61,238 nucleotides of DNA, taken from assembly GCA_014728045.1 (NCBI GenBank), contig WJMH01000012.1:1-61238 (forward strand), in the 5' to 3' direction. Below are positions 34,561 through 58,900 of this stretch, piece by piece. The translations under genes were made by a program, and so were the position numbers. The notes under the pieces are model-generated. The model did no database searches and was not told the DNA's origin. It saw nothing but the letters and a program-made list of their open reading frames with translations. Each line of letters opens with the position of its first letter. Position 1 is the first letter of the stretch. The stretch is from Candidatus Omnitrophota bacterium. Its GTDB lineage: Bacteria > Omnitrophota > Gorgyraeia > Tantalellales > Tantalellaceae.

Positions 34561-34659
34561 TAGATTTGATAAATGACTATAATAGAATGACTTATAAAAA
34601 TATGGACAAAACGGTATAAAATCATTAATGTTAAATTGGAAAAAGTAGGCTATGTGACG

Positions 34660-34689
34660 TTGACCTGTTGCTTATATATATGATATATT
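34660..34689 (+). promoter_or_regulatory. Putative sigma70-type promoter of gene B
   Basis: TTGACC (34660-34665), 18-nt spacer, TATATT (34684-34689) preceded by TG (extended -10), in an AT-rich spacer. Confidence 0.5.
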
Positions 34690-34742
34690 ATTAGTAGCCA
34701 TTTAAAGTAAGACCATAAAAAAGCCAGAAAATTCAGATATAC

Positions 34743-34755: not shown

Positions 34756-36300
34756 GTGCTTAAACGCACGAAGTTCTTAAAAATAGTATCAATACTAATA
34801 TTATTGATATTCGTACATGAACAGCTGGGGTGGACCTATGACGGTACGGCTGTATGGACCCAGCTGAACGAAGTTCCCTCCCGGTCCGGGAACAAGCTTA
34901 CCCGGCAGATCAAGATCCCCAATGATGTAGGTGAAGTCTGCCAGGCATCTACCGGCCAGGCCGGAGAGGTCATAATAAACATACAGGACGCCCACGCCTC
35001 ACTTTCATCACAGCATTCCATAGTAGATATACTTGATACCCTTGTTGCCAATTACGATGTCAGGTTCATCGCCCTTGAGGGCTCGCAGGGTTACATTGAC
35101 ACAACGCTCTTAAAAACATTTCCCGATGAAAAGATCCGTAAAAACACCGCTGAGTTCCTTATGCGCGAAGGGCGCATGAGCGCGGGTGAGTTCTTCGACG
35201 CGACGCGCGACAGGAAGGATCTGGTGCTTTACGGTGTCGAGGACAACGCCCTTTACCGGAGGAACGTGGAGGGCTTCAGGAAGATCATGGATGAAAGGGC
35301 GCATTATGCCCGGCAGGTTATCGCGCTCCGGGATCAGCTTGATGAGTTAGCCAAAAAGATATTTTCCCCGGAGCTTTACCTCCTGGCCAGATGTTCACGC
35401 CTCCATCGGCAGGGCAGGCTGAGTTTTTCCGATTACTGGAAGGAAATAAAGGGTCTTTCCGGGGATGAGGCGTCCGTTGAGGGTCTGGTGAACGTGGAAA
35501 AGCTCCTGGAGTCGATCCGCACGGAAGAAAATATTGATTTTGCGGGAGCCAACCTACAGAGAAGACAGCTGATAGATGTTCTCAGCGGCACCATGGACCA
35601 GGGGGATATCGAGAAGCTTGTCTTAAGGTCTCTTCTTTTCAAAAAGAACAAGATTTCACAGTCGGATTTCCACGGGTACCTCATCGATCTTGCGGAGGCT
35701 TACGGGGTGGACCTCTCCTGTTACGGTGATCTTGCCAGGTTTACTGAGTATGTCAGGCTGTACGAGAGCATAGACATAATCTCACTTTTCAGAGAGGTCT
35801 CCTTGTTTGAAGAGAGGCTCAGAGAATCGCTTTTCCGTAACGGGGACGAACGTGAACTAGCCCGGTGGATAAAGCTGACCCGGCTGACGGGAGATCTGTA
35901 CAACGTAGAACTTTCCAACGACGATTATGCGGACATCGCCTCACGTATCGGCGAATGTGATGGAATCTCATGCGCGCGCTTTATCCGAAGAGCCTGCACA
36001 GAATATGGAGTACCTGTGGGGCCAGGTTATGATGCCGGTAACATTTTCGGGGGCGTCGAAAAGGCCCTTGAGTTCTACAGGGTGGCCGAGGAGCGCAACA
36101 GCGCCATTCTTACGAACACCATACGAAGTATGCGGCGTGAGAACAAGCAGGTCGCCGCGCTGATAACAGGAGGTTTCCATACCGGGGGCCTTACGCGGCT
36201 CATGCGCGAGAATCGGCTCTCGTACCTTGTGGTAACGCCCAAGTTCGAAAAGGGGAAAGAAAGGCCTTATATAGCCATACTTACCAACAAGAAGAAGCCA
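34756..36300 (+). other. Signal peptide plus conserved N-terminal domain of protein B (Tiki/TraB/EreA/ChaN-like motif order)
   Basis: IQDAH (H 34993), ALEG (E 35077), ERN (R 36094), ITGGFH (H 36178); colinear with 54421-55960 in gene C. Confidence 0.7.
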
Positions 36301-39300
36301 TACCAAAGACTTCTCGAGTCGGGCAAGTATCAACTTGCCATCAGCGCGTATTTCCAGGACATGGATGAGGATAAGTTCGTAAGCGCTGCTGTCTACGCGC
36401 TTTCCAACGTGGTCAAAGAGGGCGGCAACTGGCGTTACGAGGCCGACAGGTGGTACAGGCTCTACAGAGATGAACACGCAAGGCTTAAAGAGGAATCGCA
36501 AGAGAAGATAAAGGGAAGTCTCGCTCCGGAGGAATTCGCCAGGATCCTCGGGGTGGGAGAATACGAAGGTCAGGGGCAGCTCAGGATCGAAAACTGGCAG
36601 GATACGGTCATGGTCGCAAGGATCAAGGACGACCAGAGCGCTTATTTCCGATTGGACCTTGGCGAGGGCGGCGTACTGGAATCCCCCCGGGTACTGTCGC
36701 CTCGTCAGGGCCGAAAGATCCTCGCTGCCCTTGACCGGATAAAGGACTCCGAGGGAGGCAGAGGTCTGGAGGAACGGGTCGGTGAACTCGAGGGCCAGCT
36801 GCAGCGTATCACGGAGCTGGTTGAAGGGGATCTCAAGAGCTCCCGGGATGAGGAACTCATCAGCAGGCTCGGAACCGACCGGGAACTTCTTTTTGCCGTG
36901 GTTTCCCGGCTCGACGGGCCGGGGGAAGTGACCAGGGATCAGGTGGCCAGCAAACTGAAGGCCGATTCGGGTTTTGCCCTGCCCGGTGGATGGGATAAGA
37001 ACGCGCGGCTTGCCAATGCCGTGGAAGAATTCACTCTCCTGGTAAAAGATACCAGAAAGGATATTAACAGGATAAAGAGCGACCTGAGCAATAACCAGAA
37101 GCTGGTGAAGAGCATTGCCGGTATTTTCTTGGGGAACAGGGAGGACCTTACCGCCGGTAATGTCGCGGATTTTCTTCAACGGGACATGAAAGAGCCTCTT
37201 TATGGAAGGTGGGATGAGGTGCCTTCCTTCAGGAAGGCCGTGCAGGAATTCACCGAATGGGTGGGTAAAGTAACTCCTCAGATCATGGACCAGAAGCGAA
37301 AGAGCTATCATTGGGATATAGCCGACCAGGGAAGGTTCGATAACACAATGGCGGTATTCAGCATGCTCTTCAGGCGGATAGGCATTTCCGAGGGCAGGGA
37401 AGAAGCGCCGGTGATCTCACGGATAAGGGGCACGCCCGAGAGACCGGTCAAGGTGCTTGAGGTGGGTTCCGGCAAGCTTTTGCCGGTCACCGGTTATTTC
37501 AGGGGAACACTGGGCAGTTACATGTCACGTCACGGAGGCTCTTTCAAAAGCACTTTTACCCGGGCCTACGAAGAGGGGTTCCCGAACCTGAAGGCGGAAG
37601 CGATCGATCCCAGACTTGAAGACAGGCCCGAGAAAGGTTTCCACAGGGGCAACGCCCTCAAGATGGACATGTTCAAAGATGAGGATTTCGATGATATTTT
37701 CGCTTTTATGGTTTTCAACCCTGAATGCTACTACGAATACAGCTCATTCAACGAGGAGTTCTGGGAAGAGAATTTCCCCGGCGAACTGATGACCGAAGAA
37801 AAATATTACGGGAAAATAGCGGCTGAATTATTGAGGATACTCAAGCCCGGCGGGCGTTTATACATGAGCACCGGCACCAGACACAATGATATTTTCAACC
37901 GTATACTCCTGGAATCTGGTTTCCGGTGTGAATACCTTGATAATGAAGTAGGATATCAGGTGTTCGCCAAACCGGCCGGTGATCCGCTTTCCGAGGAGGA
38001 GCGCAGAGTGTTAACCAAAAGGTCTCTTTCGCGCGTCTACCAGTACCTTACCCATTGTATATCGATAATAAAGGCCCAGCTTGAACTTGTGCCCGAAGAA
38101 GGCGAGCTTAGCGATTCACAGATCGAAGCTCTTAACAAGATCGGGGATACCGCAGAGAACATGCTCGAAGAGCTCAGGGGAGATGACCTTTACGTTCCTT
38201 ATGTAAAAGCGGTCAAAAATCTTCTGAGCAATGATAGCCCCGGTTCGCTGTATTACATATTGGGTTGTCTGCAGCCTTTTCTCACTTATTCCAGGGTATT
38301 ACCGCCCAAAAGAAATATTAATAAGAAGTATTATCAGCATATGAAGAAAAGCCTGGAAGAGATGGTAACAATAGCCTCGCGCATCGACGAGGCCGGGATC
38401 GAAGATATACGGTTCTTTGATTCTGAGAAGTCCGGGGAAGAATACGTAAGCCTCAGGGACTGGCAGAGAAGAAGGCCCATTAGCAGCAGCGAATGGCTGA
38501 CGTACCTGTTCGATACGGGGCGGGAAGATCTCGTTGACCGCATCATGCGCAGCACGGGATCCCGCGAGGTCTTTGAAAAGTACATACCGTCGGTGAATGT
38601 GTTCATGGAGATGGCCGATTCCGGAAGGGTCGCGCCCGGTCCCGGCGAGGAAGAGTTGTTCAAAGACACCAGGGGTTTTCTCCTTGAGACAGATCCGTCC
38701 AGGTTGGAGGAGCTGGGCGGCTTCGCCAGCAGCAAGATAGCTTCATCCTTCTTGGAAGAAGAGAAGAGGCCGTTTTCTTCAGGTGGCGGAGGTTTCCCCT
38801 CTATCCTTTCCATCCTGCTGGCAGGCGGGGTATGGACACTTACCCAGGGTGTGGTTTCGGCGGCAGAGCCGGCAGCGGGCCGGGTGACGTTCAGTGCCGC
38901 TGGCGCGCTGGGCGTGTTCCTCAGCACGGGAACTGTAGTTGCGCTTCTTGCTTTTAGCGCGGGCGCGATCGTAATCGCGCTGATCTCTTCGAAGGTTTTG
39001 AAAAAGTATTTCTCGAGAACATATCTCGGCAGAACGCGCCTTCGTTCGTTCCTGATAGGCGCGGCAGCATTCATGTTGTTCTTTTTCACTTTTAATATGG
39101 CAGAGTCAAGAGGCCCTAAGTCACTGAAGGACCTTTTGAGGACACCTGTCAGTAACGCCAAACAGATCATCAACAGTCTCAGGTCCGAGGAGCCCGAGAA
39201 AGAAGTGGCTCTGGGCGTGCGCCATTCACTCTCGAGCATTAAGGGCATACCGGCCGAAACCATCCTGACCGGAACAGGCACCAGGATGCGCCTTGTTCCC

Positions 39301-42300
39301 TATAGCCGCGTCCAGGACCTTATATCTTCGCCCCCGGAGGGATACAGGATCTACGGTGTCTTTAATACCGCACCACAGAGGAACGGCAGGCACACGACCC
39401 TGGTGGGATCTCAGGGGCGGGTGCTGCGGGCGCGCAACAGCATCTCGACCCGCGCGGGAGGAGCGTTCTATCTGAAATATCCCGACGGCACCGCCAGAAT
39501 AGTAAGCAACACAGATGAGAACTATGAAAAATATATAGAGGGCGAGGATTTTGAGGTGGCGATACAGGCGGGTCCCCTTGTAAAGGAAAACGGATCTATA
39601 AAGGATTCTCTTCCCACCGAATCCACTTCTAGGATCTACGTGGGGGTCGATTCTCTGACGAACCGCACGAAGTTTATGCATGTGGGCTCGGGTGTAACAG
39701 GTTACAGCGACGTCGAGGAGGTACTGGAAAAGCATTTCAAGGGATTTGCGGAGGTGATGCTTTTTGACTGCGGACAGTTCGATATTACGGAGGTCTCAAG
39801 GGACGGTGTTGCCGGCAAGGAACTGGAAGGTGAAGAGGTTTATTGTCTTGCTGTTATGGGTAAGGATCTTCCCGGCCGGAAACCTTTCGCGGAACCTGAC
39901 TGGAAGAAGAGCCCGCTGTATCTTGCCGTTCTAAGCGGGATCGCCGGTATTATAACGCCATTTCTTTTCAGTGACGGGGTGACGTCATCGCTGATGCTCA
40001 TACTGGCCTCGGTCACGGGTCTTTACGCGGCATCTTTCGGCATCTGGAAACACCTCCTTCTGGGAGGGGTAAGACGAGGCTCTTTCCGGAGCGCCGAATA
40101 CCGTTCAAGTTCAAGGGAAGTTGCGCGCCAGAGGGTGCAGATCCTTTTCGCGGAAATCTCCAGGTCCCTTACCGGCGGACGGGTTAGCAGAAAAAGCCGC
40201 GATCTGGTCGGCGGCAGTATTGATTTCGCCAGGGGGCCGGCGCAGGTAGTGCTTGTTGACGAGGATTCATCTCAAGAGGAAAAGGATATTCTCGGCACGG
40301 ATCATGCGGCTTTTGACAAGCAGAAGAACCTGTTATATATTACCGGCAATATGGCCAGGGCACCGGACTGGTTACTCTCTGTTATCCTTGCACATGAAAC
40401 CGCCCATCGTTTTACCCGAAGCGAGTGCCGGGCGAACCTTTTCACCTTGTTCAATATACCCGGGGCGATCAATACCCTGAAGGGGATCTTCTTCACCCCC
40501 GTTGATTACCGCATGGCTTCTTTCGCGAAAGATGCCGATATCCGCCAGAGGAACACAAGGAAAGCGCGTCTTGCGCAATTGCTCGCCGGGAGAATGAAAA
40601 ACGAGGGATATGATATCTCCGCAGAGGATATAAGCACTCTCGGCAGGGTATTCCTGGCCCGGAACGCTTTCAGCGGGGATACAGCAAAGCTATTCGCCTT
40701 CCTGGAAAAAGAGGGGATAGAGCTTTCCCGGACAGGAAGGCTGCTCAGTGAATATTATAATTCATATCGGGATTTTTACGATGCCTACCGGAGCGCTTCT
40801 TCCGGGGGCAGGCTGGATGCGAGTCTTGTTGACGCTAACAGGCTGCTTCCTATAATACGGCTTGTTGATACCTTCGAAGAGGACCAGGACAGGATAGGTT
40901 CTGTAATAACCCGTCTTGATATGGAGAGCTTCAAGCATACTTTTCAGCTTTTGGAAGAGGTTTTTGAACGGGAGGGCATTTCCGACAGGAGAGCGCTCAG
41001 TGTCCTGAAGACACTTATGGGCGAAAGGGATAAAGGCCTGATCAACATGATGGCCGAAGCGCGCGGGACAGGGGCTCTCACGGTGAGTGACCGTGTCCTC
41101 ATGGAGACATCGACGCCTAAAGAAAGGATATACCAATTCAATAACGGTCTATTGAAGGATACAGGCGAACGCGAGTATGCGCTAATGGTTTTCAGGATGG
41201 GCCTTCCCGAGAGGATAAAACGCCGCGTGAAGCATTACCTGGAAGCGAACGGGTTCGATGTGGCCAGCATCGAAAGCAGAAAAGCCGGGATGGACCGTGT
41301 GCTCAGTTACTGGGGCGAAGGCGGCATGCTCGAAGAGGCGCTGAGCGAGCTGGCCGAGGACGGGGTGGGCATTTTCCGGGCAAAAGTGGCCCTGGCCCGT
41401 GGCGACGGCAGGGATTTCGAGAACTGGTTCGCAAGAGTGCAGAGCGAGCATCCGGAGCTTGTTTCCGTTAAGAGGCTGGGGTTTTGGCTGGAGGTGCTCA
41501 GGCGGGGGTATGAGACCGTGATAGTCCGTTCCTCTGTTCCGAGAGAGAGGCTCTCCAGGAAATTCGCTGCTCCGGAAGAAGCCGTCGGTATGAAATTCCA
41601 GGACTTTTTCAGCGAATATGTAGTAGGGGATGAGAACGCCTTCAGGGCCGAGCCGGAGAGCTTAAGGGGGAAGTTCATCGAACCGGCATTACATCCGAGA
41701 GGAGAGCTCCGCCGTATCTTTAAGTCCGCCCAGAAGGTCCTGCCGCTTGAACAGGTGGGCCTTGCCAACTGTATAGACTGCCCGACATACAAAAAATTGA
41801 ATGATAAACGGCAGATCTATCTCCCGGCGGAAAGAGGCAGCTCCCCCGGAGAGATCCCGGCAGTCGTCCGCAGATTCAAGAAGAGCTTAGCGCCGGTCAT
41901 GCCGTTAGATAAATACGCCATCCTGGCGGCGCCCTGGGTGGAGGAGACGTTTTTCTTCTTCGCGCCGATGTTCCTGGGCGGCCTGCTTTTCGGGGTCGCC
42001 AGTTACTGGACAATCGCGCTTGTCGCCGCTGTAAGAGGGGTTTTCTTCTTTCTGCATGAGAGGCCCCGCGAGCTGATGAGCATGCCCCAGGAAGAGATCT
42101 TAAAGCTGTTCAACCCCTCTTACCAAGAGCTCAGAAAGCATGTTTACGCGGACCTTAAATACGTCACCGCTCTTGCCGGGGCATTTGGTATAGAAGAGGG
42201 ATCCGAGGAGATGTACATGTTGCGTGTTATAGCACTTACGCATGACCTGGGAGGAGTGCTGGGCGTAAAACGCGACGAGCAGATCGAGAAAAAGCTCATG

Positions 42301-45300
42301 CTGCTGGCTCTGAACAAGAACGTGGCTTACCGTAACCGCGATCCACTGGACGTGGAAGCCGAGCTTGTGAGCAAGGGAGCAGTGCTTACCGATGAGGAAA
42401 AAGCTTTCATAAGTACCATGGACCATTCCAACAATTCCCTCAGGATCCTGGACAGCTGCGACATAAAAGTCCCGCCTGTTGTGAGAAAGATAATATCAGG
42501 CCATATGGAATCGCCCACCCAGAAGGAACTTGCCGGGTGGACCGAACAGGAGAGACGACTTTTCGCGTGTTTCGCTATAGCGGATGTCTTCGAGACCGGC
42601 AACAATTACTACAAGCAGACGGGAAGGGACCCTGAATACTGGAGAAGTTTCGAATCCCCCGATGAGACAATGAAGTTCATAAGAGAGGTCAAGTTCAGGA
42701 ACAGGCACCTGCTGGTACCTTATCTGGAGAAGGCCGAAGAGTTCATCTCCGCGGGCGGGTTCCAGGAGGCCATCGAGTTCAGCCGTAAACCCATAAGTGA
42801 AGCAGAAATGAGCATGGAGATCATACCGCGGGCGCCGCCTCCGCGCAGGACAGTTCCCCTTGCGGTAGCCGTTTCGGGCGCACTTTTCCCGGGATTGCCC
42901 CTTGTTCTTCCGCAACTTTCTTTAGCTCCGGGATTATTCATCGTGGGAAGCACGACTTTAATAATTATGCTCCATGCGGCGGCCAATGCCCTCGCGCTCT
43001 TCTCGGGGAAATTACCGGCAACTATAGATACCGAGAGGTTCGGAAGGGATAAAAGGCATGTCATACTCCAGACGAACGGTAATGTCTCGGATACAGGGGA
43101 TGCGCTTTATAACGAAGTCTTTTCGGGGGCTGCGCAGATCATAAAAGAGAGGGAGTTCTTCACGTCCGAGCAGCTCAGTATCCTGGGAGGCAACGTCAAG
43201 TTCCGCCTGGTGGAGGGCACCAAGTACCTTATCGATGCGGTGGACCTGACAGGAAAGAGCGACTGGGTCATATCTGTCAACAGGTTCATTTTTGATAATT
43301 ACCATAGCGACAAGGAAGCCTGCCTGACGAAACTTGCGTACCTGCTGGCTTCGCAGTATGACCATATACTTTTTACCGAGTTCTGCCGCGAGAGGAACTT
43401 CGAGCCGGGGGTCGGCGAGAGCGCGGCCATAAATCTTCTGCGGGATACCGCGAGGGTTAACGATAACAGGGACGACGCCGAGAAGCTCGCCAGGTTCCTT
43501 GAGATGGCCAAGTTCCCCTTACGGGACGGGGAAGCGTCTGCCGATGAGACGCCATCGGGCGAATTGCCTTATTTCGCGGATTTTGAATACGAATACGGAA
43601 AGCTGCTCAGCAAGATCCGGGAAGGTTCCTTCTATGGCCTGGATTTCGTGGGCGACCCCGAATGGCTGGACCTGATAATCAATTTCTTCAACAGTAACCT
43701 CGAGTATTTCCACAACAAGCGCCTGAAAAGCGGTAGTGTGCAGACTTACCTGGCCTTTTTCTACAAGATGGAACACCTTGATAAATCCGAGGTCCTGAAA
43801 CATCTCAGGTGGTATGAGAACTATTCCGATTACGGGTGGCTGAAGGCCAAACTCGGCGATGATTTCCGCACTTCCACCATGATAGAGACCGAAGAAGAGC
43901 GAAAGGTCAATATATATTATAATCTGAGCAACGAAGAGTACAGGACTTCGGACCTTGCAAAGCGGCTTTTCCCCGAAGAGGACCCGGATTTCCTGAAAAA
44001 GACCGTCGAGGGTCTTTTCCCCGGCATACGTTTTCACGTCCGGGACCTTGAAGAGGTATATGTAAGGTTCCTCGGAGAGGGCGTCAAAAAGGACGCTTTC
44101 TACTGCATGCTCGTGACCGAAGAGGGGCCGTATGAGTTCGTCCTTCTTCTCAGGCACAAGGAAGTGGATGATGAAGGATATGAGATCATACAGCCCAACC
44201 TGCTGGAGCCGGGAGAAATGGAACAGCTCAAATGGGCGAATATCCAATTCCCCGACCGGGCGCCGCGTATAGGTTCGGTCATCACCAAGCCCGGGACCGA
44301 CACTGTCATACAGATGGGAGTTTCCTATCTCGGCAAAGACCTGGGTCGCATCGCTTCCAGTTCCAATAACAAGCTCACCGACGAGGCGAAGCTTCATTTT
44401 CTGAGGAGCGGGATAGCCTGTTATATAAAAGGCGCCTTCAGAATGGGGGGATTCAGGGTGGTCGACGACCCGAAACCGCAGAACCTGAGTTCTCTGGACA
44501 TGAAAGTCAGCATTGTTGACTATGGTAAACGTTCACGCGGGGACCGCATCGTGTTCCTTACAAAACTTGTGAAATTTCTGGCCTCGGACAGGGGTTTCTG
44601 GGGGATAGGCGGTATAGGTTTCGAAGGCGAGACCAGATATAACACGATATTTGACGCCTTTCTGGAGGCTTTTGAAAGCTACAGAGGACCGAGGAACATA
44701 AACCGTGAGTACAGGAAAGCCCTGGGGATCGAACTTTTAAGGACAATATATGAGGATCCCTACAACTTATTGACCGAAAAAGCGACGGGCGAGCCTCTTC
44801 CGGTCAAGAAAGCCCTGAAAGAGTACCTTGAGAATGTTTTCAAGCATTACCGCCCCTCGTACGTTCTCGCTTCGGACAGGCTGGTAGAAGAGTTCGACTG
44901 GGATCATGTCGCCCGAAGATGCGCCCGGATCGACGCTGGTGAAGAGGTGGTGCATTTCGCAAGTCCCTCTTCCGGACGTAACCCTTACTGGTATATCGCC
45001 CGCATGGCCGGAGTGAGCGAAAAGGCCATGGCCGTGGAAGACCTCACTGCCGGGGAAATGGAGGACATGGTCGACCTGATCATGCTGGATTACCTCACAG
45101 TTCCCAGTAACGAGTATCTTGTGATGCTCAAGAAGCTTTCCCGCAGGCTCCGGGTGGAACCGGTAATTCCCGGAACAAAGGAAGAATACAGGGCGTGGTT
45201 ACGCACCCTTAAGGAACAGGCCCGCGCTTTATCCGAGGGCCGGGATATAGAGCAAAGGACGCCGCAGGTCGATGGAAGGCTGGACGGCGACTTTCTGCTT

Positions 45301-48300
45301 TCTCTCTGCAGGCCCCAGGTCGAGGCTATCCTGGAGGACCTGGCATCCCTGCCCGAAGGATACATGCCGCTTCTTGATAATCCCCATGTTGCCTTCAGGA
45401 AAGAAGAGGTCCTTCTTTCAGTGGCAGACAGGTGGGTCAAGGAGAGTTCCGGCGTCGAGGACGCGGCCATGGTGGAGTTGATGGAAAAAGCCAGAGAAAA
45501 ACTCATAGCGCTGGGCGGATCAGCCGAGGTGGGCGAAAAAACCCCCGATGACTTCGGAAAGAGTTTCTACGGAAGGATCGAAGGTCTTTCCCCGCGTATC
45601 AGGGCCGAGGTCATAGTTGACGAGGCCGCAAGGAACGGCATCACCCGCCTTACCATACAGGATAAGGATACCGCCGAGGAAGCGGTATCTTACGCGCGTA
45701 AAAAGGGTTATCTCATAGACCTGACCTACTATCGCGGTATCCCGGCGGTGGGATGGAAAAAGGCAAAAAAACCCTCGATGCGCCCGGAAACAGCTCCGGT
45801 ACGTGAACGCAAAAAGGGTGCGGGTGTTCCGGCCATGCCCGCCGGGGATATGCCCATGGAAAAGAGCGGTTTTTACAGGGCATGGGAAGAGGCGGTATTC
45901 ACGGGCCATGCTCCGGGAAGGTACTTTCCGACGATTACAAAAGATCCGGCGGAACAGCTCGGCAGTTTCCGGGAGGGCGCCGAATTCCTCTACAATTACA
46001 AGAAGATCATCCCCGGCCTCAATTACATCGCCTCGATGGAACCGGATGAACGTGAGATGGCCAGACGCCTCTCCAGGGAGATCTTTACCAAGCTCCGGAT
46101 AGAGAAGTGGCCTCTTAAGGACACTGAAAGGCTCAACAGTCTGCGAGGTATGGTCAGGAACCTTATGACGGCCGTTTACAATGACAGCCGCACCGGCGAG
46201 AAAATGCGGAGGATAATGCGGGGTGTCACCAATATGATAGGGCTTCTGACCCTCTTCAGGGAACACGCCTTATGTATCGAAAGACTGATCCGTTCGGGGA
46301 AAGTGCCCGGCGGGGTGGACAGTCTCCGGCCGTATATACCCGAGAAATTCCTGGATGTGCCTGGCGGTGTGTCCGAGCGGGAGTATTTTGATTTCATGGC
46401 GGGGCTTGTGCCCTACCAGAGGGTCTTTGAAAAAGGCATACATGCGGAGTTGAGCGGCACGGTGCTCGAACGGGTGGACAGAGGCACCACCAGCATGAAA
46501 GCCTATACGAGCGACCAGCTTCATTTCGTTGTGAAATTCCCGGACCCCGAACAGCAGAGGGATGTGCGCAAAGATATTAAATCGGGCCTTGTCATGGCAA
46601 GAATGCACTTGGGGGGTCTTGCCGCCAATACTTTACCTATAAGGGACATCAGTATCAGAACCAGCCAGGGGACAGAGCAGCTGTCCGAGGCTTTGATACA
46701 GACAAAGGTTACCCCTCTAGGCGAGGCTATCTCTCAAATGGATGAGGCTGGTGACAGTCAGGGCGTCGAGAGCCTCTTGGCAAAATGGTGGAACCTTCAG
46801 AAACAGATGTGGCAAAGAGGCGTTCTGGACAGGCGCATGGACCTGCTTAACGGGTACGGTTACGATGAAGTTACCGGAAGGGTGCTGCTGATAGGTTTTC
46901 ATGAGCTAAGCCGGGAAGTGGGGGATTTCTGGCCGGAGGGCCTTGCGGATAACATCATAGAACTTAACGATAAAAGGAATATCGAAAAGCTTAGCGAGAC
47001 AGCTCCTCTAGTGAACGCCGCCGAGTCATACGCCTCCATAGGCTCGGAAATAAAGGAGGGCCTGCGCGTTGTAAAAAATGATCAGGGCGAAGTGTACGTG
47101 TCTTTGTGGCCGTCCGAAGAAGAGATGTCCTCGGAGGAGCTTTACATACCTCTTAATGACCCGTTCAGGATCGACGACAAGGAATTCGGTAAGATAATAG
47201 GGATAATCGAGAGGCTCATGCAGAGCGGATCTTTCTTTGAGGGGGAGTTGGCCGATGAGGTCATATCCGGGATGCTCGCGCACATCAAAGCCGAGGTCTT
47301 CGGGGTGTTCGCCGAAAGAGAACAGGCTTTGCCGGGAGAAGCTATTTCACCCGCCGGTCCCTGGGGTGGGCAAGCGCCGTTAGAACCATCGACCCTGAGG
47401 TCGTTAAAACGCATGGTCCTTCCGGGAATGGGCTTCTGGCAATACGCGCTCGGCGTCGCGCCGTGGCTTGAAGAAGTCGTTTTCTTCGCGGCCCCGGCGG
47501 TGATCTCGCATGTTTTCTTCGGTCTGGACGCGGTGGGGGCTTTCCTGTTCGTCGCTTCTTCCAGGGCGGCCTTTTTCATGCTTCATGAAGGAGCCAGGCC
47601 TCACGCGCCTCCTGCCGAATACTTCCTACCACTCGCGGTATCAGCTGCGGGTGCGGCGTTATCCGTTCTGCCGGGAGTGGTGCCAGAGCTGGGCAGCATG
47701 CCTGCTGTTTTTATCCCCGTCTCAACCGCCCTTTTGGCGCTCCTGCATCTGACGGCCAACGTTGTCTCTTTTATCACCGGGTATAAGCCAGCTTCCATCG
47801 ATGGCGGGAAAGAAGGACCTGCCGATCCCTGGCAGGGCCTGGACCGGTATGCCAGGAAGGTCTATACCAATATCGTGCAAAAATCTTTCCTCTTCAAGCA
47901 GGCCGAGGAAGGCGAACTTCAGGCCGAACGTTACCTGAACACCTATGAGGAAGAAGATAGTGAGGCTCTGCGCCAAGCCTTGAACGAACTGGTGGATGAA
48001 CATTACCTGGTCCGCATTGAAAAAGAAGAGGATGAACTTTATTACGGGTTAGGGGAAAAAGGCCGTTCCATGTTCATGGCCGCCACCGAGGACCTGTTGA
48101 AAGCGTGGATCAAAGGCATGAAGCAGAACGATCTCAAATGGAGAAGGGACCATATCCGTGACATTAGTTTCGGGTCCATGCTGCGGACGGCACCCGCCTA
48201 CAAGCAGCCGGATCCGGAAAGGATGGCGCTATTCAAGAAGCATTATGACAAGATATTCGACGTCATAACGGAGCTTATCAAGGACGAGATCAGGCTCTTC

Positions 48301-51300
48301 GAACAGGGAGAGGGTAACGACAGCGCTCTGGGCGGCCCCTTGAGCATCATCACTGGCCTGATGCAGAAATGCAGCGCCCTTAACGAACGGGTCCTGGTGG
48401 AAAATATGGTCGAGCATCTGATGATGCTCCCGTATTCGCCCAACGAAAAGGTCCGGGCGGCTTTCCAGCAGTTCTACATGAAGCTTCTCACCGTCGATCC
48501 TGAAAGGGCGAGGACTTTTCTTTTTTATTTGATGACGCATTATTCCGAATATGGCGACGCGATCAAGGAAACCGACAATCCGGTTTTCGGTATTATGGAG
48601 TTCCTGCATGAGGCAGGTGACGAGAACTTTTATTATTTCCTCAGGAGGATAACCGCCTACACTTTCCGCGACCATTCCGGCCAGGTCAACGTCGGACCCA
48701 ACCATCCTCTCAGGTGCCGTACGCGGTGCGGGAGTTACGGTCCAGACCTTGAGGGGGTGATCAGGGACTCCATACATAACCATCTGGGCGTTTACGTTCT
48801 GGGGCTTCTGGAAAGATACCTGGAGTTCTGCGGTACGGGCGACTGGCGGATACTCGCTGATGAGGAATACCAGGTGGACGCTTTCAAGAATGACGAGTTC
48901 CCCCCGCAGGACGCGGTATTCCCCATGCAGACAGTGGAACTATACAAGGGGCCGGAGGCGGATGATACCTATGCCTTGAGAAGAAGCGAGATCGTAAGGG
49001 AGATCTTTCGCCTTCTGGAAGGCGAGTTCGCGGATGAATTAAAAGTCGCAGGAAAGACCAAGTGGGAGAAGCTCAGGAACATGACCGACGAACAGCTGCA
49101 GACGCTTTACGACGCTGTCAACGAAAAGCTCGATACCAGTCTCAAAGTCGACTATGCCGGGTACAGCTTCTCCGGGTACATATACGCTTACCGCGAACTC
49201 TGTAAAAGATACAAGAGAGTGGCGAGCGTCGAGAAACTTACGGATGAACTGGTCAAACTGGCCAGGAACTACAGGGTAAGCAACAGGGTCATTACCGGTA
49301 ACAGGTGGGCCAAGGAGGATGACCCGGCATACCTGGCGATAAAGAGCGATGACCCGGCCGAAGCACTTTCGGCAATACTGAGGGCCAAGAGGAACATACG
49401 GAATGAAGTCTTCAGCGGTGAGCTTGATTATGATCGCCTGGAGATCATGGAACAGTTCCAGCGGGACTGGGGCAGGGATGATACGGGTAACGCCTACGGG
49501 GGAGCATGGGTCAAGGACGACCTTGTCGGTCTTTACATGACCGATAACATGCTCACCATGATAGAGAACCTGCACATAGAGAGAGCCTCAAGGCAGTTCA
49601 TGGAGATAAATTCACGGAATATCGTAAGCGCGCTTGAGTATCTGAGAGTCCTCGCCGAACTGAGTTATACAGAGGGACTCGTTTCGCGTTCTTTCAGGGA
49701 CCATGTCGATACGCTTCTTCAGAGGAAGGGCCTGGACTTCTCCGTGGCCAGGGATATAATCCATTTCATGCAGCAGGAATTCGTAGAGATAAAGAACTAT
49801 ATCAACCAGAACTCGGAGAACTACATCCACGCCATGCTGGACGCCGAGGGAATATACGGCGAGCGCAGGACAAAAGAATTTGACAGAAGGCTCAACGAAC
49901 TTATCAATTATGACAAGGTCTACAATTCGGCCAGAGGTCTGATAAGAAAGATCGGCAAATACGCCGAAAAACGAAGAGGGGTTTTCATAGAAGGCGAAGA
50001 GGAGAAACCGGTGGAGGAAGAGCCACTGCTCATCGGAGGGACCGTGCCAGGGGAAGCCCTGGATAAGACCGTTTCGTCGGGCCGGTACGCGCTTTCCTCT
50101 AAAGGACTTGAGCTGGCGAGGACCTCCTCGGAAGGATTGCCCATACCCGAGGGCGTAATAATACCCGCCACAGCATCGGATGAAGTAACGGATGAACTTG
50201 CCGTAGAAGGCATCAGGATGCTCGAACGCCATCTTAATACCCTTGAGGGTTTCGAGAACATGAAGTTCGGTTCTTCACAGGACCCGCTTATTGTCTCGGT
50301 GAGGTCGGGAGCCTATGTCGTGATGCCCGGACAGATGCCGACGATAGCCAATGTCGGTCTTTCAAGGGATACCATTGACGGTTTTACTGATCAGCTTGTT
50401 GAACGCGGCGTAGATCTGCGGGACGCACGCTGGACCGCCTGGGACTGTTATTCGAGGTTCCTGCAGAGTTACGGGGTTTCAGTGCTGGGAATAAGCGAAC
50501 AGCATTTTATTTCCCGGGAGGAAGATCTGCTGAGCGAGACCGGTGCAGCTGATAAAAAGGACCTTTCACTTGAGAAAATGAAGGCCCTGGCCGGACGGTT
50601 CGAAGGCGTGATCATTGACGTTGCCGGCAGGGATAAGCTGCCCCTGACCGCGGAAGAACAGTTCAAGTACTGCGTGGCCGCGGTTAAACGGTCCTGGGCC
50701 GAATCGGACGATTACCGTGATAATATTGGCCTTAAGGGAAGATGGCCGGGAACCGCGGTGCTTATACAGCGCATGGTCTTCGGAAATATAAACAGGGATT
50801 CGGGTGTCGGGGTAGTAAATTCACGGATGGTGAACGTGCGTAAACTGGGGCTTGAAGGCGATTTCCTCTGGTTCGGCCAGGGGGACGACATAGCCCAGCA
50901 CCGGGCCGAGGGCCTGGTCCAGATACAGGATATCGGCGAGCAGACGCCTTGGAAAAAAGACCTTGAAAGATACGCCGAGATGATCGAGACATCCCTGGGT
51001 ACCATGGCGGAAATAGAGTTCACTGTGGAACTTGGCAAGGTGTACATATTGCAGGTCAGGGACGCCTATATCGATGTTCGCGCGCAGGATTACCTGTTGA
51101 TGCCTTCTGAGGGTGACCTCCTGGCCAGAAGGGGCAGGGTCATACCCGCCTCGGGAGGAGCCTATAGAGGCAAGGTATACGTGCTCCACGGGCGCAAGCC
51201 CGATCTCGAAGAGATAGACCGGCTGTACGCCGAATCCAGGGCGGCAGGCGGTGACGGCGTATTGATAGTCGCCGATGACCTCAGTCCCGAGCAGCTGGGC

Positions 51301-54225: not shown

Positions 54226-54286
54226 GGTGTACTACGGAAAAACATGGAAATACAGTTAAAATATAAAATAGTTAGAAACATATATA

Positions 54287-54315
54287 TTGACTTTTATTGG
54301 CATTTACGCTATACT
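54287..54315 (+). promoter_or_regulatory. Putative sigma70-type promoter of gene C
   Basis: TTGACT (54287-54292), 17-nt spacer, TATACT (54310-54315): close to consensus. Confidence 0.65.
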
Positions 54316-54407
54316 TAGATATAGGCTGTAAAAATAGAAAAAGTCAGATACTTACACTAAGCGTGGAAGTGCGCTCAATATATATATAATATTATATGAA
54401 AACATTT

Positions 54408-54415
54408 AAAGGAGA
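54408..54415 (+). promoter_or_regulatory. Ribosome-binding site of gene C
   Basis: AAAGGAGA; the GGAG ends 6 nt upstream of ATG 54421. Confidence 0.8.
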
Positions 54416-54420
54416 AGACC

Positions 54421-55960
54421 ATGTATTCAAAAAGCCCTAAAAGATCCCTTTTCTTGAAGGCGGTAAGCGTTTTTCTTGTGCTTACCTTTTCCATGTACAA
54501 CATAAGCTATGCCGTTACCCAGGACAATCTGGAACCGGCCGGTATCAAGCAGGATATGCCTTTATCCGTGGAGGATATTGGTATAGCCATTGATTGCGGT
54601 ACGGTCAAGAACCGTTTCAACGGCAATGACGGGAAGGTCATAGTGCACATCCAGGACGCGCACTGTAATTACGAGGCGCAGTCCAATATAAACAAGATGC
54701 TTGACCAGCTGACAAGGGAATGCGAGATAGACATGATATCTGTCGAAGGGGCTGAAGGGATCGTCGACACTACATGGTTCAGGGCATTCCCGGACTCAGA
54801 GATACGCAAAGAGGTCGCTACTTATTTCATGAAAAAGGGCGAGATAACGGGCGCCGAATTCTTTTCCATAACAAGTGAATACCAGGGCACCATATTCGGT
54901 GCCGAGACCAGGGATTATTACGTGAAGAACCTGAGGGCCTTCACGGAAGTATATCCGTACAAGGAAACTATTGAGAAATATTTCACGGACGCCCGTACCG
55001 TGTCCAACCGTCTCAAATCCATAGTCTACACGCCGAAGCTCAAGGAACTGGACCTCAAGATAAGGTCTTTTGACGAAAAACAGACCGAGCTCAGCGATTA
55101 TGCCGCCTACCTTAATAAGACAGCCGAACAACAGAGAATAGATCTCAAGGACCTTGAGGATTTCAAAAAACTCGTCCAGACCCTCGAATACGAGGAAAAG
55201 ATAGATTTCGATATCGTTGACCAGGAAAGAAGCAAATATATCGATGTTCTCAGCAAAAAGATGGACAAGGAGAAGATGACCGAATTGGTGACCCAGAGCA
55301 TCAGGTTCAAGAAGGGTCATATCAAGGCGGTGGATTTCTATTCCTATCTCAGGGAACTGGCCAAGGAACACGATATAGATATGGTGCACGAGTACCAGAA
55401 CCTTTTTTATTACTATATATACACCAAACTTTATGAGGGTATCGATAACGAGAGGCTTTTCAAGGAGATCGACACTATTGAAGCCCGGCTCAAGGAGTCC
55501 TTTTTCGAGAACGGAACCCAGAGGAAGCTCGACAAGTACTCGAACATGCTGGATATGTTCATCGATCTCATAAACATAGAGCTTACCAATGACGATTATG
55601 ATCTATTCAAGGGATATTCCGAAGAGTTCACGCTTGAAGAGGTACTGGATTTCATGACAGGACTTGTGGAGAGGTACAACCTCAATTACACGGTCGACGG
55701 TATGCCCCTTGAGATAAAGAACAATATACCCAAGATGGTTGATTTCTACGAGATCGCCATAAAGAGGGATAACGCCCTTATCGAGAACACTCTCAAGCAG
55801 ATGCAGCAAGAGGGCAAGAACAGGTGCGTTCTCATAGCTGGCGGTTTCCACACCAGAGGTATTAAGCACATTCTTGAGAAAAAAGGTGTTTCTTACGTAG
55901 TGGTGACCCCCAAGATCACCAAAAATGTCGAAACGCCTTATATAAAGGTACTTACGAACC
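54421..55960 (+). other. Signal peptide plus conserved N-terminal domain of protein C (paralog of the protein B N-domain)
   Basis: HIQDAH (H 54661), SVEG (E 54745), KRD (R 55765), IAGGFH (H 55849), SYVVVTPK, PYIKVLTN. Confidence 0.75.
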
Positions 55961-58900
55961 AGAGGACGTCGCTTGAGGATATAATCACCGAAAGCGCGGC
56001 AGTTCCCGGTATAGGCATAACCGCGACACGGGAAGAGATAGTAAGGCCCAAGGGGGATATGCTGAGTCCGCTTCTCAGGGTAGCCTACACCATACCGATG
56101 TATCTTGAAGACCCGGAGGCGCTCAAAAAGCTTTCGGACGCGACAGGTCATATCCCGGAGAGCGAGTCGCTTTTCACCACGGCCGAAGGTTCGTATAAAG
56201 AGATGGTGACCCTGCTTGTGAGGGGCTGGCTCGTCAAGGTCAGGGAAAAGGCCGATCCGGAAGTATGGAAGACAGCGGTCGGAGACTGGCATCTTCTTCT
56301 CGGCGCTTTCCTCAAAAAATACGAGGAAGAGGCCGCAAAGCAGGGAACTCAGGTGATAGCGGGGCTTAAGATACCGGCCCCGGTACTTACCGAAGAGATG
56401 CTCGATGCCATAAGCGGCGAGTTCAGGGCCATATTCAGGGACGAGGTCGTTAAGAGCGTTACACCCGGGACCGAAACCGTTGATACATATGATATATATC
56501 CTTCTCTTACTTCAGCCCAGGCTGACGGGTACAATGAGGTGATCAGACCTTACATGGAGGCCACTCCGGACCCGGTAAAGATCTTTACTTTCAAGATAGA
56601 CGGCCGGAACAGGGAGATAAAGGTGTTCGCCCTTGAGAACCTCAAGGACGCCGTGGAGGAATACAACCTGGACCCCGTACACGGAGAAGAACTTCCCTTG
56701 ACCGTGGAAGTACATCCCGGACGTGGTCTTGGTCACGACGACCCCAGGCTTTACATATCAGCCGGCGCCTTGAAAGCCCTCAATGACAATCAGTTAAAAC
56801 GCTTGGCAAAGCATGAGCTTTATCATATACTTTTATTGGAAAAAGGTGAAGCTTATGACGAAGAGAAGGTCATCGAAATGATGGGAGGGGACAACCTTAT
56901 GGATATAAGGGTCACTCTGGCCAGGGTGGAGGAACAGAGGCAGGCCGTTAAAGCCGAAGAAGCCAAAAGAGTGCACGACAGCCTTATAAAAAGCTCTCTG
57001 GACATGGCTGAAGCCACTTCCAAAGGCATAGGCCCGGACGTGGTCATCATCGTAAGCTCTTCGGATGAACAGGCTGATTTCTGGCAGGAGAGGCTCACCG
57101 GTGACGATAATAAGACCGGTTCCGGCGAAGCTGTCAAGGAAGGCGCGGTCGTTCTTTCCGTGTCCGAATCGAATTGGAAGGGCGGCGCCGGCAATGGCAT
57201 GGGCACGCTTAACGGTTTTGTACAGGCCGCGCGTAAAGCGAACAGTCTCGGGCTTATAGACGTTGATTCATATGCTTCGGTTACGGAGTTCATTGACGCT
57301 ATGCTCACTTACTGCAAGGGCAAGGCCGCTTTCATGTTCCATACCGCGGGTAAAGGTACCCGTACCGCTCCGTTACCCGGTGCGGAGGTCAACTCAAAGC
57401 CGAATATCAAGCTTCCGAAGATGGTTGATGTGAAAGGCCAGCAGAGGCCGCTTACCATACTTGAGGCCGTTCTCATGGAAACCAATATTTACGCTCCTTC
57501 AAGGACAGACAGACTGGGTGTTTTCTGGGGTGACCAGGTGGTCATCAACGAGAACGATATATCCTTCGGCGGGAAGCACCACGTTGAGATATTCGGGCAG
57601 CTTGTTCCGCTGGATCCGGATATCAAGTCCTACGGAGTGCTCATTCCGGGAGAAGAAGGCGACTGTAAGCAGAGAGAGAAACTGTCTATGGATGAGGTCA
57701 AAAAACTGCTCCCGGAGGGCAGCAGCGACGTATACAAGAGCATAGGTTCATTCACTATTTCGCTCCCCTTTCTGGAAGCGATGATCATGATGCCAGAACA
57801 CAAAAAGCTGCTTGAGTCCGAATCGGGCAGCCTGAACACAGATCCCGACTGGTGGCAGCCGCTAACCTCCACGAGAGATGAGTATATAGAGATGATCGGC
57901 AAAAAAGGCGTCTCCCGCGCTAAAGCGGGCCAGACCTGGGACAGGATGCAGGACCTCTGGGTAAAATTCGTCGCTTCCGACAATTGGGACCCGGATAGCG
58001 GCCTGTACAGGCAGCTTGGATTCAACGACGTCGGGAAGAACTCGCTCTGGTGGGATTACGGGCAGAACAAATTCTACCTGAGGAACATGCAGATCCTCAC
58101 CGAGTACAGCCCCGAAGGGGAAGCTGCAAGGAATTTCTTTGACGCGGAGATAACCGACAGCAAGACTGACCAGCTGGAAATCGAAAAATCCGTCATCAAG
58201 AATTCCGATGTGAAAAGAGGAAGGCTCGTCAACTGTGTCGTCATAGACAGCCAGCTTGAAGAGGTCTACGCCGAGAACGCTGTTATTATAGGAAGCGTGG
58301 TATTAAAGCTTAACGCTGAGGACGCGTTGTGCTACAATGTCGTTAGCGAGTCCGTGAATCTCGCTCCGGGGCAGGTCCTGGCCAATATCTTCCATCCCAA
58401 ACTCGGACGTATACCGATGCGCACGGATATCGGAAGGGACGGCAGCGCCGACTGGAAAGGCGGAGTCCATGTATACGACAACGCTTACACTTACAGTAAG
58501 ATAGCCGAGCTGATGAAGGGCCTCAAGATGGAAGAGGTTATGGAGACCAAGAAAAAAGCTATTTCTGCGGTAAGGATAGGTTTAGATTGGGCGGGTAGAA
58601 GACAGGATCTCACCGCTCAGAATCTCAGCGACAAGAGAAATATAGGCATTTCAGAGGCACGCCACATCGTCGCGCACAGGATGCTGACTTTCGGTGACGT
58701 GCCGTATTTCACGGTGGCCAGTTACGCCAAGCTTTTTAATGTTTCCCCGCGCCAGGCGGGAGAAGAACTGGAGGACCTTGCTTCTGCGGAGAGGGAAGGC
58801 GCCCCGACAAGCGGCGTGGAAAGCCTTGAGGCCTATGTTACCCTTACAAAAGGGAAATTGAGCGACCTGGTGGACCAGGTCAACGAACAGGGGCTTATCA

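Follow-up and report, generated by a model that had tools for sequence, protein, structure and literature searches.

A conserved N-terminal head domain of two giant Omnitrophota proteins is likely a divergent relative of the Tiki/Ere/ChaN superfamily

The locus and the head domain of ORFs B and C

The DNA analysed here is a stretch of 61,238 nucleotides (nt) from contig WJMH01000012.1 of a Candidatus Omnitrophota bacterium (assembly GCA_014728045.1), referred to as the window. It is occupied by three very long open reading frames (ORFs A, B and C, Table 1), all on the forward strand. Our subject is the segment 34756-36300, i.e. codons 1-515 of ORF B, which encodes a domain that also forms the N-terminus of the ORF C product and is called the head in the following. 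Since the relatives of the B head come almost all from Omnitrophota metagenome-assembled genomes (MAGs), the window is a locus of the Omnitrophota 'giant genes' (10.1101/2023.11.21.568195; 10.64898/2026.06.07.730766). The head is likely related, at superfamily level, to the Tiki, erythromycin esterase (Ere) and ChaN proteins (TIKI superfamily).

The N-terminal regions of B and C share 166 of 523 residues (32%, E 7e-87, BLASTP), and the similarity ends near residue 520. Both contain, in the same order, the motifs QDAH, Q, EG, R(N/D)xA(I/L) and GGFH; the single Q is Q86 of B, which follows IQDAH and precedes EG, and the motifs of C lie 1-2 residues further along than their counterparts in B. These shared motifs are far beyond chance. 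A previous reading of this DNA, made from the sequence only, had listed the same series for B and C, and all of its elements were found again in that order and at the given place. D78, H80, Q86, E108, G109, R447, G472, G473 and H475 (B numbering, here and below) are invariant in an alignment of 30 sequences. When 194 sequences are aligned, D78, H80, Q86 and E108 are each conserved in 193; R447 is present in all 183 and H475 in 182 of the 183 sequences that reach those columns. Position 448 is occupied by D in 95 and by N in 81 sequences. This near-invariance persists although the relatives are overall only 20-60% identical to B; outside the motifs their identity to B drops to 20-30%.

When all six reading frames of the window were searched with a family hidden Markov model (HMM), the heads of B and C were the only two copies detected, with none in ORF A or in any other frame. 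The earlier suggestion that each giant starts with this domain thus applies to B and C and not to A as seen in the window.

Table 1. Coordinates of the ORFs and of the head-domain features in the window; residues are counted from the start of the respective ORF product
Feature	Position	Strand	Remarks
ORF A	17-34420	+	11,467 amino acids (aa); ATG at 17
ORF B	34756-54225	+	GTG start, 6,489 aa
B residues 1-27, basic N-terminus (KRTK) and hydrophobic helix	34756..34836	+	hydropathy peak 7-25; AlphaFold helix 2-27
B head domain, residues ~50-525	34903..36330	+	BLASTP vs C, 30-sequence alignment, family HMM, AlphaFold
B core N-half, residues 55-163	34918..35244	+	strands 59-65, 72-78, 104-107, 111-113, 157-161, helices between (AlphaFold)
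B IQDAH, residues 76-80	34981..34995	+	C-terminal end of strand 72-78
B E108-G109	35077..35082	+	end of strand 104-107
B helical insert (lobe), residues 164-433, ~270 aa	35245..36054	+	helices only (AlphaFold)
B core C-half, residues 434-520	36055..36315	+	helix 434-461, strand 466-472, helix 473-485, strand 489-495, conserved PY..L tail
B RNSAI, residues 447-451	36094..36108	+	within helix 434-461
B GGFH, residues 472-475	36169..36180	+	end of strand 466-472
ORF C	ATG 54421 to beyond window end	+	at least 2,272 aa
C residues 1-32, basic N-terminus and hydrophobic helix	54421..54516	+	possible SYA|V cleavage site
C head domain, residues ~45-527	54553..56001	+	paralogue of B head; HMM score 741
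C IQDAH, residues 77-81	54649..54663	+	
C E109-G110	54745..54750	+	
C RDNAL, residues 449-453	55765..55779	+	inside weak PF04187 match, residues 437-479
C GGFH, residues 474-477	55840..55851	+	

Predicted structure of the head

Two AlphaFold models were used. Model 1 covers B residues 1-530 with 30 homologues (predicted local distance difference test, pLDDT, 84.8; predicted template modelling score, pTM, 0.74), model 2 the stand-alone relative P0053, which is 24% identical to B (pLDDT 91, pTM 0.83). According to model 1, the N-terminal helix is followed by a linker of low confidence (residues 28-47) and then by an alpha/beta core that is predicted to be split in two (55-163 and 434-520) by a helical lobe. 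In both B and C the domain itself measures ~470 residues, and a flexible linker of ~20 residues connects it with the hydrophobic helix. The long helical insert of the sequence-only reading is borne out here, and it makes up more than half of the head. In the N-half, a helix (83-100) connects strands 72-78 and 104-107. D78/H80, E108 and H475 each follow the C-terminal end of a strand, and R447 lies about 15 residues, approximately one strand length, before the end of the helix leading into the GGFH strand. Because of these strand-end and helix positions, D78, H80, E108, R447 and H475 should share one edge of a parallel sheet. Model 2 repeats the layout with a beta-alpha-beta core, motifs at the strand ends and a helical lobe.

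When the family profile was compared with PDB sequences, the only matches were weak ones to proteins with EF-hands, centrin with E 0.015 and troponin C with E about 0.08. They span four helix-loop-helix units of the insert, at B residues ~180-320, where stretches like G-K-I-S-F-x-D-Y and K-I-S-x-x-D-F are similar to the latter half of an EF-hand loop without the Ca-binding Asp residues. To judge from this sequence resemblance, the lobe may be derived from degenerate EF-hand pairs.

Evidence for a relationship to the TIKI superfamily

Both models were searched with Foldseek against 350,542 PDB chains. With model 1, EreC took ranks 1 and 2 (E 0.02 with probability 0.90, and E 0.07), Bcr135 ranks 4, 5 and 7, ChaN rank 12 and HopBA1 rank 19. 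Model 2 placed Bcr135 at rank 5, EreC at 6 and 13, ChaN at 14 and HopBA1 at 45; the same PDB entries as with model 1 returned at ranks 5, 6, 13, 14, 31 and 45. EreC, Bcr135, ChaN and HopBA1, all counted as members of the TIKI superfamily (PMC6254334), were the only alpha/beta proteins that recurred for both models. Most of the remaining matches were generic helical bundles and coiled coils fitting the insert. A fold search of BFVD gave nothing significant, with a TraB-family viral protein at rank 19 (E 0.38).

Profile comparison with hhalign pointed in the same direction for the N-half. The Ere profile comprised 120 database proteins; its seed was verified as an Ere sequence (PF05139, E 1.5e-43; a database protein 99% identical). 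E43, H46, H285, N286 and H288 are invariant among these 120 sequences. The N-half of the head matched the N-half of Ere with a score of 22.3 (P 0.003), compared with 12.6 +/- 2.3 for column shuffles, none of 150 of which reached 22.3. In this alignment E108 falls on the invariant catalytic Glu of Ere, E74, and ungapped extension of the confident block at its constant offset of 34 places H80 on the catalytic His, Ere H46, which corresponds to H50 of EreC. Global alignments of head and Ere collapsed into trivial ones.

The spacing of the motif residues provides a further line of evidence. In B, 28 residues separate H80 from E108 and likewise R447 from H475. In EreC, the residues H50, E78, R261 and H289 are spaced by 28 (H50 to E78) and 28 (R261 to H289) (PMC7979712). 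RRSP has E3900-x-H3902, E3930, R4001 and H4030, with distances of 28 (H3902 to E3930) and 29 (R4001 to H4030), and in Bcr135 H85 and E113 are also 28 residues apart (PMC6254334). The His to Glu spacing of EreB is 28, too. The set of two His and two acidic residues typical of the superfamily is matched by the near-invariant D78-x-H80, E108 and H475 at strand ends, the first acid being Asp. The basic residue before the last His is matched by R447-[D/N] in helix 434-461.

Domain models were run from a 2025 copy of Pfam on B, C, 30 members and the family consensus, and from NCBIfam on the 30 members. ChaN (PF04187) was the sole Pfam family to match the head, below threshold: two of the 30 members, ORF C and one other, gave weak matches on the R...GGFH segment (E 0.011-0.076, profile positions 163-204 of 213), ORF C scoring 13.4 bits (E 0.076) with a gathering threshold of 27.7 bits. 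PF04187 did not match the family consensus, and neither PF05139 (Erythro_esteras) nor PF01963 (TraB_PrgY_gumN) matched any of the 30 members. Sub-threshold hits to PAH_ZNF598 and N-SET were rejected as noise. NCBIfam yielded nothing relevant, and neither collection contains a model of the head family.

Kinship with Tiki, EreA and ChaN, as proposed from the sequence only, is therefore supported, though not decisively, by several independent lines that are each weak alone. Motif order, spacing, Foldseek and the N-half profile speak for it, whereas no test was decisive and the C-half gave nothing significant. The TIKI fold has a central parallel beta-sheet with helices on its flanks, and repeated beta-alpha units are predicted for the head. 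The suggested Foldseek check of the fold returned EreC, Bcr135, ChaN and HopBA1 repeatedly, but with a best E of 0.02 and template modelling (TM) scores of about 0.2-0.3. The head domain is outside every existing family. It can best be regarded as a new and very large family within the TIKI superfamily, distinguished by its helical lobe and forming the N-terminal head of long Omnitrophota proteins.

Comparison with known members

The best structural matches belong to the Ere family (EreA/B/C/D, Bcr135/136; PF05139; PDB 6XCS/6XCQ and 3B55/2RAD). Ere proteins and the head are alike in their two-lobe build; in both, the insert separates the Arg helix from the strand that comes after the Glu (FLGIDIP in Ere). 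The insert comprises about 270 aa of helices in the head and about 120 aa in Ere, and the motifs differ as well (G-E-x-x-H and A-H-N-x-H in Ere, Q-D-A-H and G-G-F-H in the head). Furthermore, Ere proteins are soluble stand-alone enzymes of ~420 aa, whereas the head is the N-terminal part of membrane giants.

ChaN (PDB 2G5G), found in both Foldseek searches, is a haem-binding lipoprotein of ~250 aa that lacks the long helical insert of the head. It carries an acid-x-His motif near its N-terminus and is exported. RRSP shares with the head the constellation of two His, two acidic residues and Arg with the first acid at -2; RRSP and PMT were not among the Foldseek matches of the head models. In TraB (E. 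coli YbaP) the first motif reads G-x-x-H and lacks the acid, and the two spacings are 26 and 24, compared with D-x-H and 28 and 28 in the head; the pattern of the TraB family (PF01963) is G-T/S-x-H ... E ... R-N ... G-x-x-H-L. Tiki and PrgY are membrane-tethered extracytoplasmic peptidases.

Other Omnitrophota giants carry C39 or S8 peptidase heads, which resemble the B/C head in that a putative hydrolase lies near the N-terminus beside a signal peptide (10.1101/2023.11.21.568195) and differ from it in fold and catalytic type. Apart from these C39 and S8 peptidases, the N-terminal regions of the giants have been described as devoid of identifiable domains (West-Roberts et al. 2023, 10.1101/2023.11.21.568195). 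Tiki, TraB and erythromycin esterase are not mentioned in the two giant-gene papers (10.1101/2023.11.21.568195; 10.64898/2026.06.07.730766).

Family size, hosts and gene arrangement

The giants of Omnitrophota belong to the longest proteins known, and the head family is large. A profile search of 1.84 billion representative proteins (50% identity clusters) gave 10,269 matches with E <= 1e-3 and 7,230 with E <= 1e-30, so that more than 10,000 protein clusters are headed by this single unannotated family. Among the 150 best matches the head begins less than ~80 residues from the N-terminus in almost all cases, following an export or anchor helix, in proteins of 500 to 7,834 aa. A scan of one genome per GTDB species yielded at least 600 pattern matches, 587 of which were confirmed; the best 80 all came from Omnitrophota-type MAGs, some of them labelled 'uncultured Planctomycetia' and one 'Eisenbacteria'. 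Several heads per contig are common. PLNN01000019.1 has three of them, about 30 kb apart, the same tandem arrangement as that of B and C in the window.

The head also occurs as a separate gene. P0038 is a head protein of 530 aa with a signal-peptide-like AFA|A, and its gene is followed after 4 nt by that of a protein of 3,300 aa, which has a classic signal peptide too (AQA|A). At locus L005, the gene of P0053 (486 aa) precedes those of a 1,235-aa protein and, next in order, of a 1,922-aa PPDK/PEP-utilizer protein, whose enzyme content is that of the body of B. Further stand-alone heads adjoin proteins of more than 3,000 aa. As fused and split arrangements both occur, head and long body appear to be a conserved functional pair. 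In gene order, ORF B resembles an operon fused into one gene. F_bP_aldolase, TIM and GMPPB-like domains were also seen among the neighbours of split heads (loci L005, L002, L004).

A second module was observed in C about 240 residues after the head (residues 765-802, window 56713-56826), consisting of HPGRG, about 30 aa and the zincin-like HExxH motif HELYH. The pair HPGRG...HExxH is present in 15 of 192 relatives, mostly at residues ~725-780 (P0037, P0105, P0113, P0119 and others), and the order head, HExxH module, PGM/PMM of C recurs in P0105 and P0119, in the latter with a cupin next. Pfam gave no match to this module. ORF B contains HETAH at residue ~1880, and residues ~150-200 of ORF A show a similar sequence, GLGRS...LAHEFYEM, with another residue in place of the second His. 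By its motif, the module could be a metalloprotease and a rival candidate for any processing activity.

Location and proposed mechanism

In the N-termini of B and C, basic residues precede the hydrophobic helix and acidic ones follow it, which by the positive-inside rule would put the head outside the cytoplasmic membrane. The sequence-only reading had placed the head right after a signal peptide. A hydrophobic helix does precede it, but this helix may be either a cleaved signal peptide or an uncleaved (type II) anchor. Further hydrophobic clusters were found in ORF B at residues 1377-1449, 1721-1763, 2398-2432, 2700-2745 and 4241-4340, and on this ground B would be a giant that crosses the membrane several times, the head occupying the first of its extracytoplasmic segments.

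EreC works without a metal: H50, E78 and H289 hold a water molecule, from which H50, oriented by E47, takes a proton, and the transition state is stabilised by R261 (PMC7979712). RRSP uses the same 2His/2Glu set together with R4001 and is a metal-independent endopeptidase, unlike the metal-dependent Tiki; both Tiki and RRSP are site-specific endopeptidases (PMC6254334). By analogy with these proteins, the head is most likely an extracytoplasmic water-activating hydrolase. By position from EreC and RRSP, H80 would be the general base, oriented by D78 and perhaps also by the invariant Q77, E108 and H475 would be ligands of the water, and R447, the counterpart of EreC R261 and RRSP R4001, would stabilise the oxyanion or transition state. 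The helical lobe would probably form a wall of the substrate pocket, a lid or a gate. In this scheme the head would act as a peptidase or esterase outside the cytoplasmic membrane jointly with the long body, whether the two are fused or come from separate neighbouring genes.

This proposal provides the family with a concrete, mutable active-site hypothesis (D78, H80, E108, R447 and H475), and with a soluble construct of ~480 aa the question of giant-protein processing becomes directly testable. The family merits a Pfam/InterPro entry in the TIKI clan, by which thousands of 'hypothetical' proteins would be annotated. It does not represent a new kind of biology; rather, it offers a testable handle on a poorly understood class of proteins.

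Weighing of the interpretation

Taking the evidence together, we favour with moderate confidence the view that the head is a very divergent member of the TIKI superfamily, acting as an extracytoplasmic water-activating hydrolase paired with a long body. Several results weigh against it. Every single homology test stayed below database-standard significance: all Foldseek matches had E >= 0.02, with the TM scores given above and large root mean square deviations; the hhalign probabilities were 1-10% and the full-length P was 0.05; and the C-half of the head aligned with that of Ere no better than shuffles (87 of 150 reached its score). A TraB profile based on YbaP gave hhalign P values of 0.015-0.04 with probabilities below 3%, the profile being narrow (effective number of sequences 2.3; 67-100% identity). 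No Pfam or NCBIfam model exceeded its threshold on B, C, the 30 members or the consensus sequences, and the PDB-sequence profile search returned the weak EF-hand matches in the insert and nothing else. The first acid is an Asp at -2 instead of the Glu at -3 in Ere, and the last motif is GGFH instead of AHNxH. The evidence for an exported location consists of the positive-inside rule and signal-peptide-like sequences. Finally, some members of the superfamily (ChaN, PMT C1/C2) are not enzymes.

The sequence-only reading had suggested a protease for auto-processing, i.e. that the head cuts its own giant or the neighbouring long protein, or frees the giant from the membrane helix. The position of the head at the N-terminus of very long multi-enzyme proteins would suit such a role, as would the resemblance of B to a fusion of separate genes of the L005 type (head, 1,235-aa protein and 1,922-aa PPDK-type protein) and the endopeptidase activity of Tiki and RRSP; the same role has been proposed for the C39 and S8 heads of other giants (10.1101/2023.11.21.568195). 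We nevertheless consider it unlikely. No conserved cleavage motif was identified, the relatives of Ere type are esterases and not proteases, and the additional HExxH module in a subset of head proteins could be the protease instead. Moreover, head and body of the split loci have separate signal peptides, from which it follows that a covalent linkage is not needed and that an external substrate is equally possible. The pairing of head and body, fused or split, would fit processing of the body in cis or in trans and a joint external target alike. A still more doubtful extension is a bacterial 'polyprotein' system in which the head serves as the dedicated maturation enzyme and cuts the exported giant chains, in cis or in trans, into individual functional enzymes; if true, maturation by the head would explain the fusion of operons into single Omnitrophota genes of 6,000-11,000 aa.

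A non-catalytic module of TIKI fold, whose conserved residues would form a binding site for metal, haem or some other ligand or would dock the giant to a membrane or secretion partner, seems improbable to us. The fold is not always enzymatic, as seen from the haem-binding ChaN, whose family gave the sole Pfam signal, and from PMT C1/C2, which lack catalytic residues; and the D/H/E/H set could also be a metal site. However, all the residues that serve catalysis in Ere and RRSP, the Arg among them, are near-invariant across thousands of clusters, whereas PMT, the non-enzymatic relative, has lost these residues.

We also attach little probability to the possibility that the head is a novel alpha/beta and helical fold unrelated to TIKI proteins, with a D-x-H/E/R/H pattern that arose by convergence or chance. 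The weakness of all the homology statistics would be expected in that case, short motifs of His, Glu and Arg are common, and the insert takes up more than half of the domain. On the other hand, four motifs in the same order lie on the same type of secondary-structure element, and both spacings are identical to those of EreC. In addition, the same few PDB chains recur for two models from sequences of 24% identity, and the N-half score is above all 150 shuffles. A generic Rossmann/flavodoxin-like fold was rejected, because such folds are nearly absent from the Foldseek lists, the exceptions being DnaB and KaiC with one model (ranks 37 and 45, probability <0.1).

Other features of the locus

The GTG start of ORF B is preceded by a Shine-Dalgarno-like run, GGGGGGA. 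Pfam detected PPDK_N and PEP-utilizers domains in the body of B near residues 5168-5592 (window 50257-51531) and all four PGM/PMM domains (I-IV) in the body of C at residues 1561-2092 (window 59101-60696). Domains of central-metabolism type (PPDK_N, PEP-utilizers, PGM/PMM) are thus situated in proteins predicted to be exported or membrane-threaded.

ORF A is a SecA-type giant with SecA_PP_bind (residues 2078-2195), SecA P-loop (2285-2418) and DEAD-like (1733-1808) matches in Pfam. No in-frame stop lies upstream of its ATG at 17, and its true 5' end may therefore lie outside the window; as called in the window, it lacks an N-terminal signal sequence. Dense hydrophobic clusters are located at residues ~2719-3147, 8942-9589 and 10383-11066. 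The AT skew falls from about +0.25 to -0.03 in a single 2-kb bin (window 8001-10000), which overlaps the first of these clusters with its T-rich codons. This drop is probably an effect of coding composition and not a foreign insert.

The regions upstream of B (34580-34730) and of C (54280-54415) share an alignable stretch of ~125 nt. Hexamers similar to those of sigma-70 promoters were found in both (TTGACC-18-TATATT upstream of B, TTGACT-17-TATACT upstream of C), as was an element ATATATAT..ATATTAT..CATTTAAAG, which stands immediately 5' of the start of C. At the codon equivalent to the ATG of C, B has ATA, and its translation begins 40 nt downstream at the GTG. The upstream similarity suggests a duplication that comprised the gene, its promoter and its leader. 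At 54462-54486, only 40 nt inside ORF C and within the codons of the N-terminal hydrophobic helix, a hairpin with a 9-bp stem and a subsequent T-run resembles a terminator; it is probably a chance match.

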